Source: Escherichia phage Murica. Taken from it: a DNA stretch of 64,000 bases. Shown here one piece after another: positions 20,227 to 33,406 of the stretch (the first letter of the stretch is position 1; each line of letters opens with the position of its first letter). The stretch lies in sequence record NC_041871.1; one strand, 5' to 3'. Made by a program: the position numbers and the translations under genes. The notes beneath the pieces were generated by a model. The model did no database searches. It was not told where the DNA came from and worked only from the letters and a program-made list of their open reading frames with translations.

Positions 20227-20460
20227 ATGAAAGTTAAATTTCTTACAGATTTAGGGTACCCTTCCTTGGTTGACTGTGTTGGTAAAATTGTGGAAGCAAA
20301 ACGGCTATCTGCAAACGAGAATGTTGTCCTGGTTAAAGGGAAGGATTTACTAGCTGCAGGTGCAGAGTCTGGCAGGATCTCTCCTGATTATATGTATTAC
20401 CTATCTTTAAGTAATCTGCCAGAGCGAGGCGGTAAAGGCCTTGAAGTTGTGGAGGAGTGA
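20227..20460 (+). CDS. small acidic protein, KGxDLxAAGA paralog family
   Basis: MKVKFL...VKGKDLLAAGA...GLEVVEE; AGGAGG SD. Confidence 0.55.
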   Translation: MKVKFLTDLGYPSLVDCVGKIVEAKRLSANENVVLVKGKDLLAAGAESGRISPDYMYYLSLSNLPERGGKGLEVVEE

Positions 20461-23505: not shown

Positions 23506-23789
23506 TAATGAAAAAGATTAACAGTAGTGAAGTAGAGTTTAAACTTGTCGGAAAAGGCACTTACTGGGAAGTTCGTCAAAAGGTATATTTGTTCGGTCTT
23601 ATTCCCTACTGGTCTAAATTCTACTGGGGAGCTAACGAGTTGGGAAGATATGCCACCAAATCAATGGCACTTATTGGTATAGCAGAGTACATTGCAGCCC
23701 GAGACAGGGTTGGAACCACTTATTACTACACTGCTGACGATATTCGTAACAGTGTTTACGTCCCACAACCACCTGATGGAGACCGTTGA
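23502..23789 (+). CDS. hypothetical protein
   Basis: GAGGGAG SD. Confidence 0.45.
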   Translation: MIMKKINSSEVEFKLVGKGTYWEVRQKVYLFGLIPYWSKFYWGANELGRYATKSMALIGIAEYIAARDRVGTTYYYTADDIRNSVYVPQPPDGDR

Positions 23790-24013
23790 TGAAAGTTAAA
23801 GTTTTAGATTCAAGCTTCTATATTGGTCAGGAGCCTTTAGTAGGAAAAGTGTTTACTGCTGTCCCTAACGAAGATTACCCTGACCTTTTAAAAATAAAAG
23901 GAGCAGATCTTATTGCCGCTGGTGCATCTCAGGAATGCTTTGACAGTCAGTGGACCTATAACTTTGCCCTAGGTGAGGATGTAGAGGTAGTGGAGGACGA
24001 TCATGAAGGTTAA
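23789..24013 (+). CDS. small acidic protein, KGxDLxAAGA paralog family
   Basis: MKVKVLD...IKGADLIAAGA...DVEVVED. Confidence 0.55.
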   Translation: MKVKVLDSSFYIGQEPLVGKVFTAVPNEDYPDLLKIKGADLIAAGASQECFDSQWTYNFALGEDVEVVEDDHEG

Positions 24014-24257
24014 AATTCTTGATTCTAACGTCTACTTGGGGCAATCCTTCCTGAATGGAAAGGTCGTTCCTGCGGTATACTTTGAAGGGTTGCCGTGGGA
24101 TGATCCTGTGCGGCAACATCACAATTATGTAGGCCACAACGTGGTGTTTATCTTGGGATCAGACCTGATCACCGCTGGTGCACCTGAATATTATTTCGGG
24201 GAAGAGTCCTACTATGCCTTTGGGGTAGGGTCAGATGCAGATATTGTAGAGCTGTGA
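24003..24257 (+). CDS. small acidic protein, KGxDLxAAGA paralog family
   Basis: MKVKILD...LGSDLITAGA...DADIVEL. Confidence 0.55.
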   Translation: MKVKILDSNVYLGQSFLNGKVVPAVYFEGLPWDDPVRQHHNYVGHNVVFILGSDLITAGAPEYYFGEESYYAFGVGSDADIVEL

Positions 24258-24269
24258 TGGGTAACCGTT

Positions 24270-24668
24270 GTGAAAAATAAACTGTTTAAAGTTACAATGA
24301 AAATTCGCGGGGCTTGGAGCGTAAAGCAAGGGCGTATTCCAGAATTTGAGAAAGACTTCTACGTAGTCTCCACCTCTGAGGAGGCTGCATGCTGGCAGGC
24401 TGGCTATGCCTATGCAAGAACCTGGTACGAAGGATACCAGACTGGGGGCTATGACGGAGAAATTATCAGCAAGGGTGTAGAAGAAATTAATGTGTTGACA
24501 AGTGAAAAAGTTTTTGTTATAGTGCATCCAGATTCCAGAGTGAAGCATTACTGGAATGCCAGAACAAAAACTTGGACACCGTTTGCAGATTCTGCTACGC
24601 CACTTTTAAACCAGAAAGCTCTTGACTCTGCCCCAAGTTATGGGGTTGTTGAAGAAAAGCTAAACTGA
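24270..24668 (+). CDS. hypothetical protein (paralog of 26479-26874)
   Basis: VFVIVHPDSRVKHYWNARTKTWTP resembles KFVMRHPHSNIAYYWDVLNNEWTP; start uncertain. Confidence 0.45.
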   Translation: MKNKLFKVTMKIRGAWSVKQGRIPEFEKDFYVVSTSEEAACWQAGYAYARTWYEGYQTGGYDGEIISKGVEEINVLTSEKVFVIVHPDSRVKHYWNARTKTWTPFADSATPLLNQKALDSAPSYGVVEEKLN

Positions 24669-24685
24669 AACAGTGAGGTGTCACC

Positions 24686-24976
24686 ATGATGGATTTAATT
24701 CTAAATATTGATAACGCAGGAGAGTTTAAAGACGATGGTGTAACAAGCATGGACAAACCCTGCTCTGCTAAGGTTGACTCAAAATGGACCTACAAGTTTG
24801 ACGGAGAGATCTTCGCAAATGATGAGAAGGTTGTAGATGCTGCAGCCATTTTAAACGCTCTAGGGTACGACCCTGTGAATTCTTTGATCAAGGATCCTGT
24901 TGAGTTTGCAGAGTATGTTCGAAAAATGGCAGATCTTGCTGTGGATATTTTAAAAACTATCGACAACAAGCTGTAA
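24686..24976 (+). CDS. hypothetical acidic protein
   Basis: GAGGTG SD. Confidence 0.45.
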   Translation: MMDLILNIDNAGEFKDDGVTSMDKPCSAKVDSKWTYKFDGEIFANDEKVVDAAAILNALGYDPVNSLIKDPVEFAEYVRKMADLAVDILKTIDNKL

Positions 24977-24982
24977 AAACTG

Positions 24983-25011
24983 TTGACACAACGCTTCAGA
25001 TTTAGTATCAT
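24983..25011 (+). promoter_or_regulatory. sigma70-like promoter upstream of hpf homologue
   Basis: TTGACA (24983-24988), 17 nt, TATCAT (25006-25011). Confidence 0.45.
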
Positions 25012-25060
25012 TGTTTTCAAAGAGAGATAGTTATTCCCTCTTCCTTAAAAGGAACACGTT

Positions 25061-25360
25061 ATGCAAATTGAAATCACTGGCAACAATGTAGAAATCACAG
25101 AAGGTATGGTATCTTTTATTTCCCGCAAAATGTCCAAGCTGGAGCGTTTACATCCCTCTGTTAACTATGCACGTGTGAGTGTAAAAGTTGAAAATGATCA
25201 CCAGGAAGTTATGGCGTTCATTTTTGACAATTCTGGAAAAGAAGTTATTGCCAAGGCTAAAGGCAGTGATGCTTACGAGGCAACTGACCGTATGGTAGAT
25301 GTTGCAGCACGTCAGCTGGCTAAATGCGGTGGAAAGAAAGGTAAGGGGAAGGCAAAGTAA
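25061..25360 (+). CDS. hpf: ribosome hibernation promoting factor homologue (HPF/YfiA family)
   Basis: MQIEITGNNVEITEGM...VSVKVE...AKGSDAYEATDRMVDVAARQLAK parallels E. coli HPF MQLNITGNNVEITEAL...VVLKVE...AIDGLIDKLARQLTK. Confidence 0.85.
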   Translation: MQIEITGNNVEITEGMVSFISRKMSKLERLHPSVNYARVSVKVENDHQEVMAFIFDNSGKEVIAKAKGSDAYEATDRMVDVAARQLAKCGGKKGKGKAK

Positions 25361-25389
25361 AGATTGACTTTGGAGAATGAGGTGCTACA

Positions 25390-25491
25390 ATGGGTGTGAT
25401 TAAGAAATTAGTCCCAAATGTAGAGATTGCATGCTTTGAAATTATGTTTGCAATCGCAGTTGTAGTTAATGTGTTAGGTTACGGCTATTAA
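25390..25491 (+). CDS. hydrophobic micropeptide (33 aa)
   Basis: MGVIKKLVPNVEIACFEIMFAIAVVVNVLGYGY; GAGGTG SD. Confidence 0.3.
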   Translation: MGVIKKLVPNVEIACFEIMFAIAVVVNVLGYGY

Positions 25492-25517
25492 TATCAAATA
25501 ATTGAGGAGACCTCTAA

Positions 25518-25787
25518 ATGAAAATTAAATTATTCCAAACTGAGCTGGCAGACAAAAATTGTGGACTGGTTGAAGGCATGATTGTTGAAGCACAACCAGT
25601 GGACTATATGAAGGTGGTTCGTGATGCCCTAGGTGAAGGTTTTGATCTGATGGAGCCAGCTCTGCGAGAAGATGTTATCGAGATGGCTAAAAAGCACACA
25701 CCTGAAGGTTTGGTGGTGTTTGTTGCACCGGGTAACGGAGAAGAGTTGATTGTAACTCCTGATGTGTATGAGATTGTAGAGGAATAA
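25518..25787 (+). CDS. small acidic protein (family-like, ends YEIVEE)
   Basis: MKIKLF...VVFVAPGNGEELIV...DVYEIVEE. Confidence 0.5.
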   Translation: MKIKLFQTELADKNCGLVEGMIVEAQPVDYMKVVRDALGEGFDLMEPALREDVIEMAKKHTPEGLVVFVAPGNGEELIVTPDVYEIVEE

Positions 25788-25878
25788 TCCTGCTTGGATT
25801 AGCATACTTCCTCGCTAAGGAAGATTTGTAATTATTTGTGGGAAAGGAGTCCCAATCTCTTACCAGAGGTGATACTAT

Positions 25879-26142
25879 ATGATTGTTTATTTTAAAACTT
25901 CAGGTGGATACCCTGATTCTCAAAGCTTGATCGGAAAAACGTGCACAGCATACTCACCTCTTGATGAGGAGGTAAGCGATATTTTACGAAATATGTATCG
26001 GATTGACCCCCAAGAAGCCTTTGATCAAAACCTTGTATTTGTCAAGGGCTCAGATATGAAGTCTTTGGGAGCATTCCCTGAAGCAGATGATGATGCCGTT
26101 TATTCGTTCATGACTCCTTTTGAAGCTATGGTTGTTGGGTGA
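25879..26142 (+). CDS. small acidic protein (family-like)
   Basis: LVFVKGSDMKSLGA resembles family KGxDLxAAGA motif. Confidence 0.45.
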   Translation: MIVYFKTSGGYPDSQSLIGKTCTAYSPLDEEVSDILRNMYRIDPQEAFDQNLVFVKGSDMKSLGAFPEADDDAVYSFMTPFEAMVVG

Positions 26143-26146
26143 TAAT

Positions 26147-26479
26147 ATGAAAGTACGCTTTATTGGTGAAACAATTCCTGTGCATCTCCGGTCGCCTGAG
26201 GATTCTGCAGATCTTGCATCTCAAAAGGCGAGAGGTTATGATAAGAAAGTAACCTCAACCGATGTAGTGCTTGAGGCTACTAGTCTACCTGACCCTGCTG
26301 CATTCTTTAATCATTATGGGTACTATTTCAGCAATCTGATGAATATCGGTGAGCTTGTGTTTATTAGTGGTGGAGAAATTGTTAGCAAGCTTGGCGGCGA
26401 TCCGGATATCTTTCATGAAACCTGTCCTTTTGCATTTGTGGTAGGTTCAGATGTGGAAGTTATTGAGGAGGTGCGGTAA
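26147..26479 (+). CDS. small acidic protein (family-like)
   Basis: MKVRFIGE...LVFISGGEIVSKLG...GSDVEVIEE; track start 26120 lies in upstream gene. Confidence 0.45.
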   Translation: MKVRFIGETIPVHLRSPEDSADLASQKARGYDKKVTSTDVVLEATSLPDPAAFFNHYGYYFSNLMNIGELVFISGGEIVSKLGGDPDIFHETCPFAFVVGSDVEVIEEVR

Positions 26480-26874
26480 TGGTAAGCCTATACCGTGTTG
26501 AGTATAGCTCAGATACTGTATACAACGTAAGAAGCAAAGATCGCAGCGACAGAGTGCAAGAAATGTATGTTCTTGCCGACAGTCCGTTATCTGCAGCGTT
26601 CAAGGCAGGGGCTCTTGCATCTCGTTGGAAATTTGAAGGTGGATCTTTCTATGAAGAAACCCTTGAAGATTCTGTTGTTATTTCTTCTGTAGAGGTTTCA
26701 GATGACTACGAAGGGAAAAAGTTCGTAATGCGGCACCCACACAGCAACATTGCGTACTACTGGGATGTTCTGAACAACGAGTGGACCCCAGATCTTCAGA
26801 AGGCTACTGTGCTAACACCGTTTTTGGCAGATAAGTTCCCACCAGAAGGTAATTTATCCGCACTGTTTCAGTAA
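26479..26874 (+). CDS. hypothetical protein (paralog of 24270-24668)
   Basis: Shared RHPxS...YW...WTP block; GAGGTG SD. Confidence 0.5.
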   Translation: MVSLYRVEYSSDTVYNVRSKDRSDRVQEMYVLADSPLSAAFKAGALASRWKFEGGSFYEETLEDSVVISSVEVSDDYEGKKFVMRHPHSNIAYYWDVLNNEWTPDLQKATVLTPFLADKFPPEGNLSALFQ

Positions 26875-26882
26875 TTTTCTTG

Positions 26883-26923
26883 CACACAGGTGTTGACAAC
26901 GCCAACCCTGTGTGAAATAATAC
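26883..26923 (+). promoter_or_regulatory. sigma70-like promoter flanked by inverted repeat
   Basis: CACACAGG (26883-26890) ... TTGACA (26893-26898) ... CCTGTGTG (26907-26914) ... TAATAC (26918-26923). Confidence 0.4.
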
Positions 26924-26953
26924 CTTCATCTTAACAAGACAGGGGACCGATTG

Positions 26954-27211
26954 ATGAAGATTAAATTGAAAAACCTTGAAACGGCAGAGATTCAGGACGG
27001 TGTTGATTTCCGTTCTAAAGATGGTGACATCTTAGAGGTAAATATTCCAACCTACGAGCTGATTAAAGGTTTTGGCAACGTTCCGGAAGAGGATATTACA
27101 GAAATTCTTATGATGTTGATTCTTGACGGAACTGTGTTTGTAGGTGAAGGTGAGAACGCTATTGCAATCCCAGGCCATTTTTATGAAGTAGTTGACGAAG
27201 AGGTGCTGTAA
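26954..27211 (+). CDS. small acidic protein (family-like)
   Basis: MKIKLKNL...HFYEVVDEEVL. Confidence 0.5.
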   Translation: MKIKLKNLETAEIQDGVDFRSKDGDILEVNIPTYELIKGFGNVPEEDITEILMMLILDGTVFVGEGENAIAIPGHFYEVVDEEVL

Positions 27212-30871: not shown

Positions 30872-30962
30872 CACACAATTAGCTGCCCGGCTAAAGTGCT
30901 GGAGCACCTACAATACATCTTTCAACTAAATTTCCCACCACCACAATCACTTACCTTCCACA

Positions 30963-31025
30963 CATGACTGTTTGCTTGTTTAGTGAGCAGTCATGCCTTG
31001 ACATTCTTGCCTATCCTGATAAAAT
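30963..31025 (+). promoter_or_regulatory. sigma70-like promoter with upstream inverted repeat, firing into ORF-free region
   Basis: CATGACTG (30963-30970) / CAGTCATG (30988-30995); TTGACA (30998-31003), 16 nt, TAAAAT (31020-31025). Confidence 0.45.
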
Positions 31026-32349
31026 TAAGTTCTTCTCTTTTCTTTTACCGAGTAATTCGGGTTTTCTGTTCTCTTCGGTTTGAAGGGGTATGGAGATACA
31101 CCTGAGTGAACATGGTGAACAACCGAACATTTGGCTATGGCATTAGCATGGCGAAGCGGACGGGTGACGAAAGAGGGGCCGGAGGACACCAGTCACTGCC
31201 ATATGATATATGGGTGATAACCTGAAGAGTCTGAATAAGTGTTTAAGTACCAGTCAGAGGAAAAGGTGAATGGTAGCCGAAGGGGGAGGGGGGTTTCTTG
31301 TATCTTTAATTTGTATATTATGTATACACTCGTAAACCAATCTCATCTGAATCTGTTTACCACACAAAGTAGATAGGGACAAATATCACCTATTAAACTT
31401 GAATTATTTATAGAAAATACCACAACACCACTTAAGTCTTTGATTTTACACACAAATCCTACAGATATTCAACCTCTATATTTAACATATTCATAACATA
31501 TTCCATACTCTACCTGTCTGATCAATTTACCCAACCACATCCTCCATATTTTCCCTGTCTGTACCACCCCTGCCCCGCCGGGAGTCCCGTCATATCTGGC
31601 TTTCCAGCAAATATCACACCCACAAATATCATTGCCTGAAGAGGGTTTCATCCCATAGTACATGCCTTACCTGAAGAGCGCTTCATACACCACGTAAATT
31701 TTTTAATTTACCCCCCCTCCCCGCCGCCGGAGTGGTCGGCTTTTCCCACACAGGCCTGAAGAGTCAGCCAGAAATATCTGAACAGGTCCAGTTATACCAC
31801 GATTTTGACCTGACCGACAGGAGTGCTGCCAGGCGGACGGAATGGGAATACTTCTCATTCTTATAATAATTCTCAAATATCGAGGCAGTGAGGCAAATTA
31901 ATAGGTGAGGCCGTTCACACAGTGGCACAACATTTGCAATCTATTTTGTGAGGGTGAATGAGAATACCTATCATTGTGAGAACTGTTATCATTACGGGCA
32001 ATTTAACATAATACCCATTATGCGCACCACTGGCGATCCATACAGGGATTGATAACATGAGTTACAGTTTACGCATATAACAATCATATTTCTTACTATT
32101 TGTGTGGGATATAGTTAGCAGCCGATAGATTAGATATTGACCTGTGGACTTCCAACCGTCTAGACGTCTAAACGCCCACACAACAAGGATTATACATACA
32201 TTACTGAATGTAAACAGGGCCGCAAAAATGCTACCATACCAGATTGTAAATTTTTCATGCAGCACTTGACAAAGAGGAGAAAAACTTGTCTGACACAATA
32301 TGACATACTGGGCACATTAAACACACTTTAGACTTAATTGACATGCCTG

Positions 32350-32469
32350 ACTGTTTACGCTGTCACTATTCACGCTATTACTATTCACTCCCTTTACTGT
32401 TCACGCTCTTACTGTTTACATGCTTAATGGTTTACATGACCAATAGTTTACATAGCTAACTATTTACAT
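32350..32469. repeat. iteron array: 8 direct 11-bp repeats at 15-16 bp period
   Basis: actgtttacgc, actattcacgc, actattcactc, actgttcacgc, actgtttacat, atggtttacat, atagtttacat, actatttacat starting at about 32350, 32365, 32380, 32396, 32411, 32427, 32443, 32459. Confidence 0.8.
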
Positions 32470-32481
32470 GGAAATGATAAG

Positions 32482-32762
32482 CCATGCCATTCGTTTGCAT
32501 GATAACTATTAGCAAGTTAATAATCTTTCGCTGGCTATGCCAGGTGACCTTTGGTCACCCCTTCGGGTGTTTCTATGACATAATATAAAAGCAGGGCAAC
32601 TATTAGAAGATCTATAGTTGCCTTGCTTGTTATGTCATGATTAACTAAATACAAGGCAACTATGATCTGATTAATAGTTTGCAAACAAACTATCACGGGG
32701 GGTGATGGTTACTGCTTTTATATTATGTCGCGACTCCGTCGCGCCATGCCATTCGTTTGCAT
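32482..32762. repeat. nested direct/inverted repeat complex
   Basis: 19-bp direct repeat CCATGCCATTCGTTTGCAT (32482 and 32744); 18-bp inverted repeat TGACATAATATAAAAGCAG (32576) / CTGCTTTTATATTATGTC (32712); palindromes GGTGACC-ttt-GGTCACC (32543-32559) and GGCAACTAT-N10-ATAGTTGCC (32595-32622). Confidence 0.75.
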
Positions 32763-33388
32763 AGTTGCCTTATTGTTACAGATAAAATAATTGTATTGTT
32801 AATTATTTCTTATCTTTCTCTTAGTCATCTAATGATTCCAGTCAGTATAGTAATGTACAGTAAACATTAGACGACTAAAGATTTATATGCTTATAATAAC
32901 TTACAGTGACAATTTCGGACTGTTTACGAAAAATGTTGACACCTGAGCCGATTTATGTTATGCAGTTTACACGAATAATTATTTTATGCAGGTATTGACT
33001 ATTCCGTTATTCTATGGTCGGAATAAATACTTAGCAGTCTATAGAATGGTGACGCTACGTGAATTCTGGAATTTAGTGGCTATAGTTATACCCGATTTTT
33101 CACGTAGAACACGCTTTTGTGGTTATGTAAGTGTATGACTTATAAAGATTTTTAGTTGTTGACAAGACACTGAAGATATGCATCAGGTTAAATTTTGTGC
33201 AATAGCTGCATTACGTGCAATTTTGGAAGGAAAAACGTGTAAAAATGGCCCTGCTACCACACAATGAAAGATTATGCAATAGCTATTTTATATGTATGTT
33301 TGTACAGTGTGTGGGATTGATGGCTAGTCAATTATTCCACTTGCCAGGTGGGGACGTTTGTGGTAGGAGAAATACAGACAAAAAGAAA

Positions 33389-33406
33389 GGGGCCTTTTAA
33401 AGCCCC
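33389..33406 (-). terminator. terminator closing the - strand arm
   Basis: GGGGC-cttttaaa-GCCCC with U-tract on - strand (complement of AAAAGAAA 33381-33388). Confidence 0.5.

Follow-up and report, generated by a model that had tools for sequence, protein, structure and literature searches.

The closest described systems are the ribosome hibernation factors of E. coli and the phage-encoded member of their family in coliphage rV5. The short HPF of E. coli (YhbH; PDB 2rql, 4v8h, 6h4n) is a single S30AE domain that works together with RMF, turning 90S dimers into 100S particles, and host hibernation factors of this kind protect 16S rRNA from YbeY and RNase R (Prossliner 2021). In rV5-like coliphages both the gene, with its place in the family, and the promoter are on record: the rV5 type record (DQ832317) lists ORF 144 as 'sigma 54 modulation factor' and, at the position corresponding to ours, a 'Sigma70-type promoter; P144', and the genome was described as carrying a block of small ORFs and 33 sigma70-type promoters (Kropinski et al. 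2013, PMC3606486). Phage HPFs were later catalogued from the rV5, FV3, JES-2013, FFH2 and typing-phage-14 proteins (Mizuno et al. 2019, PMC6375957), and five further rV5-like phages with hpf were mentioned 'as already described' (Mathieu et al. 2020). When rV5 HPF was expressed in E. coli, its peptides were found in the crude extract, not in 70S or 100S fractions, and 100S particles were unchanged; the authors proposed that the protein might compete with host factors and prevent ribosomes from dimerizing (Mizuno et al. 2019, PMC6375957). No later functional study of a phage HPF was found in a literature search.

The window, that is the whole 64-kb stretch analysed here out of the ∼135-kb genome of Escherichia phage Murica, contains at 25061–25360 (plus strand) the same gene as rV5 ORF 144 (ABI79209). 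The two proteins are 97% identical, and position, promoter and neighbours are alike. They differ in that the Murica allele encodes 99 residues and lacks the VKIDFGE found in rV5, and in that the window protein reads GNNVEITE, as does E. coli HPF, where rV5 reads GNVEITE. Relative to E. coli HPF, the phage protein has likewise a single S30AE domain of equal length, is predicted to superpose at 1.1 Å rmsd and shares the signature residues. However, it is basic where HPF is mildly acidic, its tail is Lys/Gly-rich, 11–18 residues long and charged +3 to +5, and its gene lies under a constitutive-type sigma70 promoter instead of in an rpoN operon. Whereas short HPF acts with RMF, a tblastn search of the window reveals neither an RMF-like gene nor a second HPF/RaiA gene. 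With E. coli RaiA (YfiA, protein Y) the phage protein shares the fold and the expected binding site, and both have longer tails than HPF; sequence identity is nevertheless only 22–24%, and the RaiA tail counts 26 residues with a charge of −4, in contrast to the basic phage tail.

S30AE folds are also encoded by jumbo phages of enterobacterial hosts, namely Cronobacter phage GAP32 (K4F6Q6) and Escherichia phage PBECO4 (L7TII8) (see also Table 1 of Mizuno et al. 2019, PMC6375957). These two are only 22–23% identical to the window protein and are missed by tblastn; phage HPF-fold proteins overall, including these and a few more, share 19–25% with it. Given such low identity and the missing tblastn match, the jumbo-phage genes were most likely acquired separately. 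To this body of knowledge the present analysis adds a corrected gene length, evidence of long-term selection and a reassessment of the sole published binding test.

Family assignment and predicted fold

The ORF starts with ATG and encodes a folded domain (residues 1–90) followed by a basic disordered tail (about 91–99). An earlier note, made from the letters alone, had aligned this 99-residue product with bacterial HPF/YfiA along its full length. The alignment holds, since the N-terminus is MQIEITGNNVEITEGM as quoted there and the match spans the whole domain. The profile search against the HPF/RaiA family that the note had proposed gives scores above both curated thresholds: PF02482 (Ribosomal_S30AE) is matched with 57 bits against a gathering score of 23.7, residues 3–89 covering profile positions 1–83 of 88, and the superfamily profile TIGR00741 (HPF/YfiA) with 57 bits against a cutoff of 40.9. 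In phmmer searches of the PDB the best sequence matches are E. coli HPF, whose residues 1–89 align with 1–90 of the phage protein (E 3e-15), and tblastn with E. coli HPF yields 44% identity over 86 aa (E 5e-17). Depending on the comparison, identity amounts to 41–44% with E. coli HPF. Membership of the window product in the HPF/YfiA family is therefore close to certain.

Assignment within the family is less simple. The equivalog profile for short HPF (NF007780) is the best-matching subfamily, yet its score of 65.5 bits lies below the cutoff of 125, and that for RaiA/YfiA (NF007654) reaches 23.2 bits against a cutoff of 158. The C-terminal dimerisation domain of long HPF is absent from the protein, which consists of a single domain and a disordered tail in all forms of 99–106 aa. 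Judged by these profiles, the phage protein belongs to the superfamily but is not a demonstrable equivalent of either E. coli HPF or RaiA. The exact 99-residue protein is on record for phage Murica (AKU44224.1 / YP_009593976.1) as 'sigma54 modulation factor' or 'RaiA'. The RefSeq name 'RaiA' is imprecise, because the NF007654 score falls under its cutoff and the tail is basic and 11–18 residues long, as opposed to 26 residues and acidic in RaiA. In other records the gene is called hpf, ribosome hibernation factor or RaiA, and in six of them (MT884008.2, MT884010.2, MT884011.2, OR062525.1, OR062528.1, OR062530.1) the locus is named 'ATP-dependent protease La type I', an evident misannotation.

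The AlphaFold2 model (mean pLDDT 86.8) predicts the beta-alpha-beta-beta-beta-alpha topology of the S30AE fold, with strands at residues 2–8, 34–43, 48–56 and 61–68, helices at 14–30 and 71–90, and disorder from about residue 92 onwards. Foldseek returns 35 PDB matches with E <= 0.001, all of them HPF/YfiA/pY chains, and the predicted structure superposes on V. cholerae HPF and on 100S-bound E. coli HPF (6h4n_x) with 1.1 Å rmsd and TM 0.85–0.92. In an alignment that took in E. coli HPF, RaiA and six cellular short HPFs, 16 invariant or near-invariant columns are kept by the phage protein (G7, I12, T13, K23, K26, L27, E44, G59, A64, D70, Y72, D76, D80, R84, Q85 and K88). The lysine of the helix-2 'DKL' motif is replaced by valine in Vequintavirus and by threonine in a sister lineage described below. 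As an argument against ribosome binding this loss was weakened, because V or T also occurs in cellular members of the family (P0010, P0012).

Charge distinguishes the phage protein from its cellular homologues. Its pI is 8.7–9.4, compared with 6.5 for E. coli HPF and 5.95 for RaiA. The post-domain tail has 16–18 residues and a net charge of +3 to +4 in the usual phage form, 11 residues and +5 in the window allele, 8 residues and +2 in E. coli HPF, and 26 residues and −4 in RaiA. The tail of the sister lineage is different in sequence and similar in length and charge, which suggests that selection maintains a basic tail rather than one particular sequence.

A truncated allele within a block of small genes

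The length of 99 residues results from a 1-nt deletion at 25349–25350 (plus strand), where the window has AA and its relatives have AAA. Alignment with navn and JLBYU08 shows this A-run change as GGGGAAAGGC in the relatives and GGGGAAGGC in the window. The frame is shifted and the protein becomes 7 residues shorter, so that the usual ending of the 105–106-aa products (...GKGKGKVKIDFGE or ...GKKGKGKGKVKIDFGE) is replaced by ...GKKGKGKAK; the remnant codons of the long form (VKIDFGE and its stop) persist out of frame at 25358–25380. The folded domain is unaffected. Over the deletion stretch none of the 116 matching phage records is 100% identical, and each of the 60 matches listed spans 142 nt against 141 in the window. 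A cluster look-up places the 99-aa form on 2 contigs, the 106-aa form on 218 and the 105-aa form on 189: the short form is a minority allele, and the typical product has 105–106 aa. A sequencing error was considered and rejected. Four run assemblies, independent of one another, have the deletion too; their contigs match the window at 99.3–99.85% identity and are mutually different elsewhere, and the frameshift is real because these assemblies share it with the Murica record. In rV5 the long C-terminus is translated, since the peptide VKIDFGE was found there by mass spectrometry (Mizuno et al. 2019, PMC6375957). Variation also occurs at the other end of the gene: in JES2013 and O157 typing phage 4 (L011, L012) the start codon is GTG instead of ATG, the gene being otherwise intact.

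Upstream of the gene lies a sigma70-type promoter, TTGACA-17-TATCAT, at 24983–25011 (plus strand), which agrees with the consensus at 11 of 12 positions, ends ∼50 nt before the gene and corresponds to rV5 'P144'. The window has 11 copies of the pattern TTGACA-N17-TAnnAT where shuffled sequence predicts 0.33, all of them on the coding strand of the local gene block, and for these two reasons such sites are taken as real promoter elements. The −35 hexamer with its upstream context (AAACTGTTGACACA) is unchanged in all copies examined, including the sister lineage with its 64–68% protein identity. By consensus and conservation, host sigma70 RNA polymerase would transcribe the HPF gene from P144, as part of an extended run of small genes. 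No terminator-like site separates the promoter from the preceding ORF, which stops at 24976, the nearest one upstream (24861–24875) being weak and located within that ORF; on the 3′ side of the gene none is found before a weak one at 25807–25823. As intervening terminator-like sites are lacking, transcription from further upstream probably reads through into the gene as well, and the gene probably shares a transcript with the two ORFs that follow, of 33 and 89 aa. The claim of a promoter of its own, made in the earlier note, therefore stands as regards a near-consensus sigma70 site, but 'dedicated' overstates the case, for the site is one of 11 similar ones and is not flanked by terminators.

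The leader (25012–25060, plus strand) includes a Shine-Dalgarno sequence, AAGGA, at 25049–25053, 7 nt from the ATG. Predicted small hairpins lie at 25021–25041 and 25042–25053, and the outer stem AAGAG...CTCTT is conserved among Vequintavirus copies, the inner stem being variable. A regulatory 5′ leader structure was nonetheless dropped from consideration: the leader folds no better than shuffled sequences (z −0.5, −1.7, −1.1), and the structure is absent in the sister lineage. Another promoter-like site, TTGACT-16-TACAAT preceded by TG, is located at 25364–25391 (plus strand) and agrees with the consensus at 10 of 12 positions. It overlaps the C-terminal codons of the long form and the ATG of the 33-aa ORF; because of this overlap with the start codon of the 33-aa ORF, it more likely serves the 89-aa ORF and probably drives the gene at 25518–25787.

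The first of the two downstream ORFs (25390–25491, plus strand) encodes a hydrophobic protein of 33 aa whose relatives are labelled hypothetical or 'putative membrane protein'; it has no significant Pfam match, the YqzM profile remaining below threshold (E 0.078, 13.5 bits against 27). The second (25518–25787, plus strand; 89 aa) is followed by the weak terminator-like hairpin already mentioned. Several GenBank records name it 'sigma 54 modulation factor' (navn_114, JLBYU08_58 and others), and it was considered as a possible second HPF gene and rejected, as it matches no Pfam family and tblastn shows no resemblance to HPF or RaiA. In view of this lack of S30AE, HPF or RaiA similarity, the label looks carried over from the neighbouring gene.

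Also encoded in the array around the HPF gene are a family of five paralogous small acidic proteins that start with MKVK... and end with ...G.D.EV.E (20227–20460, 23786–24013, 24003–24257, 25879–26142 and 26120–26479), and a separate paralogous pair of ∼131 aa (24270–24668 and 26479–26874). No Pfam family is matched by either group, and HPF belongs to neither. Further along the window, at the junction of the plus- and minus-strand blocks of small genes, about 2.5 kb (30900–33400) contain no ORF longer than 78 aa. Tandem repeats are present in this region (15 bp × 4.4 at 32350–32416; 16 bp × 2.5 at 32414–32453), and GC drops to 0.32 at 32800–33199; no Rfam family and no tRNA were found in it, nor were Rfam families or tRNAs (ARAGORN) found elsewhere in the window. 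By position, not by alignment, it probably corresponds to the rV5 'non-coding' region without observable ORFs at 104013–106618 (Kropinski et al. 2013, PMC3606486), and an origin or a regulatory region are candidate roles for it.

Distribution and selection

The 3 kb around the gene are matched at 90% identity or more by 119 phage records, essentially all of them rV5-like Escherichia phages of the genus Vequintavirus. By tblastn the gene is found in 116 Vequintavirus records with 93–100% identity and, elsewhere in the phage collection, in only one bacterial record; IMG/VR adds two loci. Among the nucleotide matches, 18 unannotated records labelled 'Campylobacter phage' (GenBank MG0656xx, host Campylobacter jejuni) match 24000–27000, with 97.9–99.8% identity for the eight listed, and are probably mislabelled or contaminant assemblies.

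A HMMER scan of 1.84 billion protein representatives reveals a single close cluster (P0004, 65% identity), all other hits scoring 53 bits or less. Full-length cellular HPFs in that scan share at most 45% identity with the phage protein. One further hit, P0006, a repetitive protein of 1160 aa with 8 matched stretches, aligns only over a short strand region and was set aside as a compositional match. The P0004 cluster, filed by NCBI under Escherichia coli, is encoded on phage-sized contigs of ∼125–137 kb; contigs L003–L006 of this lineage, from Logan and ENA, measure 124–126 kb. The small-gene array of the lineage is syntenic with the window; orthologues of the neighbours are 27–88% identical and HPF itself 64–68%. 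The lineage has no counterpart in the phage collection of 50,697 records. It is read as an uncultured sister of Vequintavirus, because its DNA is only 70–78% identical to that of known members of the genus, over about one-third of the region.

Within Vequintavirus, dN/dS of the domain is 0.04–0.11 with dS reaching 0.65; towards the sister lineage dN amounts to 0.26, with dS at saturation. The gene has the same GC (0.42) and GC3 (0.37) as the neighbouring phage genes. On these comparative grounds the HPF gene is old, present throughout the genus and under strong purifying selection. Together, selection, synteny, base composition and the lack of a close cellular donor qualify the reading of Mizuno et al. 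2019, for whom the transfer was 'relatively recent'.

Proposed ribosome binding and alternative roles

If the phage protein behaves like its family, it would dock in the head-body (decoding) channel of the 30S subunit of vacant host ribosomes. This site is that of E. coli HPF and RaiA, and from the predicted docking it follows that the phage protein would compete with both host factors. The likeliest purpose would be phage control over the state of the idle ribosome pool, either by shielding 16S rRNA from nucleases or by replacing the host factors and thus keeping ribosomes out of a hibernation imposed by the host. The earlier note had suggested that a phage copy could silence or protect host ribosomes or counter defences aimed at translation, which is speculative.

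The published test of binding can be re-read from its supplementary mass-spectrometry tables (Mizuno 2019, Supplementary Data 2–5), which cover three ribosome preparations from cells harvested at OD600 1 and pelleted through 500 mM NH4Cl. Host HPF is present in the crude extract and in none of the three salt-washed preparations. Since genuine E. coli HPF is itself unrecovered, the absence of phage HPF from ribosomes says little on binding, and the published negative result is weak and not decisive. Host RaiA, for its part, is listed on ribosomes from both controls, cells expressing bS21 and cells expressing bL12. On ribosomes from cells expressing phage HPF, none of RaiA, host HPF, RMF and the phage protein is listed, even though RaiA is present in the extract of those cells. 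The loss of RaiA is a single, unreplicated presence/absence observation; occurring only with the phage protein, it fits competition for a shared site and is to be taken only as a lead.

Several points argue for ribosome binding: the family profiles, a predicted backbone like that of ribosome-bound HPF, the retained residues, the selection on the gene, a basic tail in both lineages and the loss of RaiA. Against it stand the negative findings of Mizuno 2019, profile scores below the equivalog cutoffs, an identity of only 41–44%, the lost helix-2 lysine, the basic pI and the absence of RMF from the window. By analogy with its homologues, we lean slightly towards the view that the phage HPF binds ribosomes at the HPF site.

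The strongest rival explanation is a repurposed fold, in which the S30AE domain would be kept, ribosome binding lost, and another RNA or protein of phage or host targeted. Such a change would account for a protein that appears in the extract and not in ribosome fractions and leaves 100S particles as they were (Mizuno 2019, PMC6375957), and it would suit the isolation of a clade with one close cluster among 1.84 billion representatives, a protein more basic than its cellular homologues and the missing lysine of helix 2. Within the family, a staphylococcal HPF is reported to have a second, non-ribosomal partner (PMC9522360). However, an assay in which host HPF is likewise recovered in none of three ribosome preparations cannot separate binders from non-binders. 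In addition, the positions conserved in ribosome-binding members are kept, and the backbone, as modelled, is close to that of ribosome-bound HPF. We consider a loss of binding unlikely.

A variant of the binding view makes the protein an anti-hibernation factor, which would bind the HPF/RaiA site weakly, reversibly and in a salt-labile manner, and evict RaiA, with a basic tail that might also hinder RMF. Such eviction would account for the data of Mizuno and colleagues, in which only the phage-HPF sample has ribosomes lacking RaiA, and we put the proposal forward tentatively, as a rather doubtful reading. Were it true, the idle ribosomes of starved E. coli in the gut would remain protected and yet be at once reusable for phage mRNAs.

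Shut-off of host translation, by which the A and P sites of host ribosomes would be blocked during takeover, appears decidedly improbable. Members of the HPF/YfiA family bind vacant ribosomes, not translating ones, and a block at these sites would be blind to the difference between host and phage mRNA. The strong host-type promoter of the gene would suit a shut-off factor, as would the inactivation of ribosomes by HPF and RaiA, which fill the tRNA and mRNA sites (review PMC6746590). But cells that expressed the phage protein continuously from the overnight culture onwards reached OD600 1 with an unchanged 70S profile (Mizuno 2019, PMC6375957), and this growth with a normal profile weakens the proposal.

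A recent host-derived passenger without a role in infection, the scenario that the earlier note had set against its own reading, could draw on the similarity to cellular HPF, which Mizuno 2019 (PMC6375957) took as a sign of relatively recent transfer. It is contradicted by the distance from any donor (41–44% identity with E. coli HPF and no cellular protein above 45% among the 1.84 billion representatives), by GC and GC3 values like those of the neighbours, by genus-wide presence with synteny conserved into the sister lineage, and by the low dN/dS; selection, synteny, composition and the lack of a close donor together exclude a recent, unselected passenger, and any such explanation is very improbable. 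A sigma-54 modulator, as many GenBank names have it, is scarcely credible, for the name is only the historical one of the family (the rV5 record cites a Klebsiella oxytoca 'probable sigma(54) modulation protein'), whereas solved family structures are those of a ribosome-binding factor and neither sequence nor context offers a link to sigma-54.

Few phage genes act directly on the host ribosome, and those that do are not well understood. Should it indeed bind ribosomes, the phage HPF would show how a virulent coliphage handles the idle ribosome pool of its host, for example in slow-growing or starved cells.
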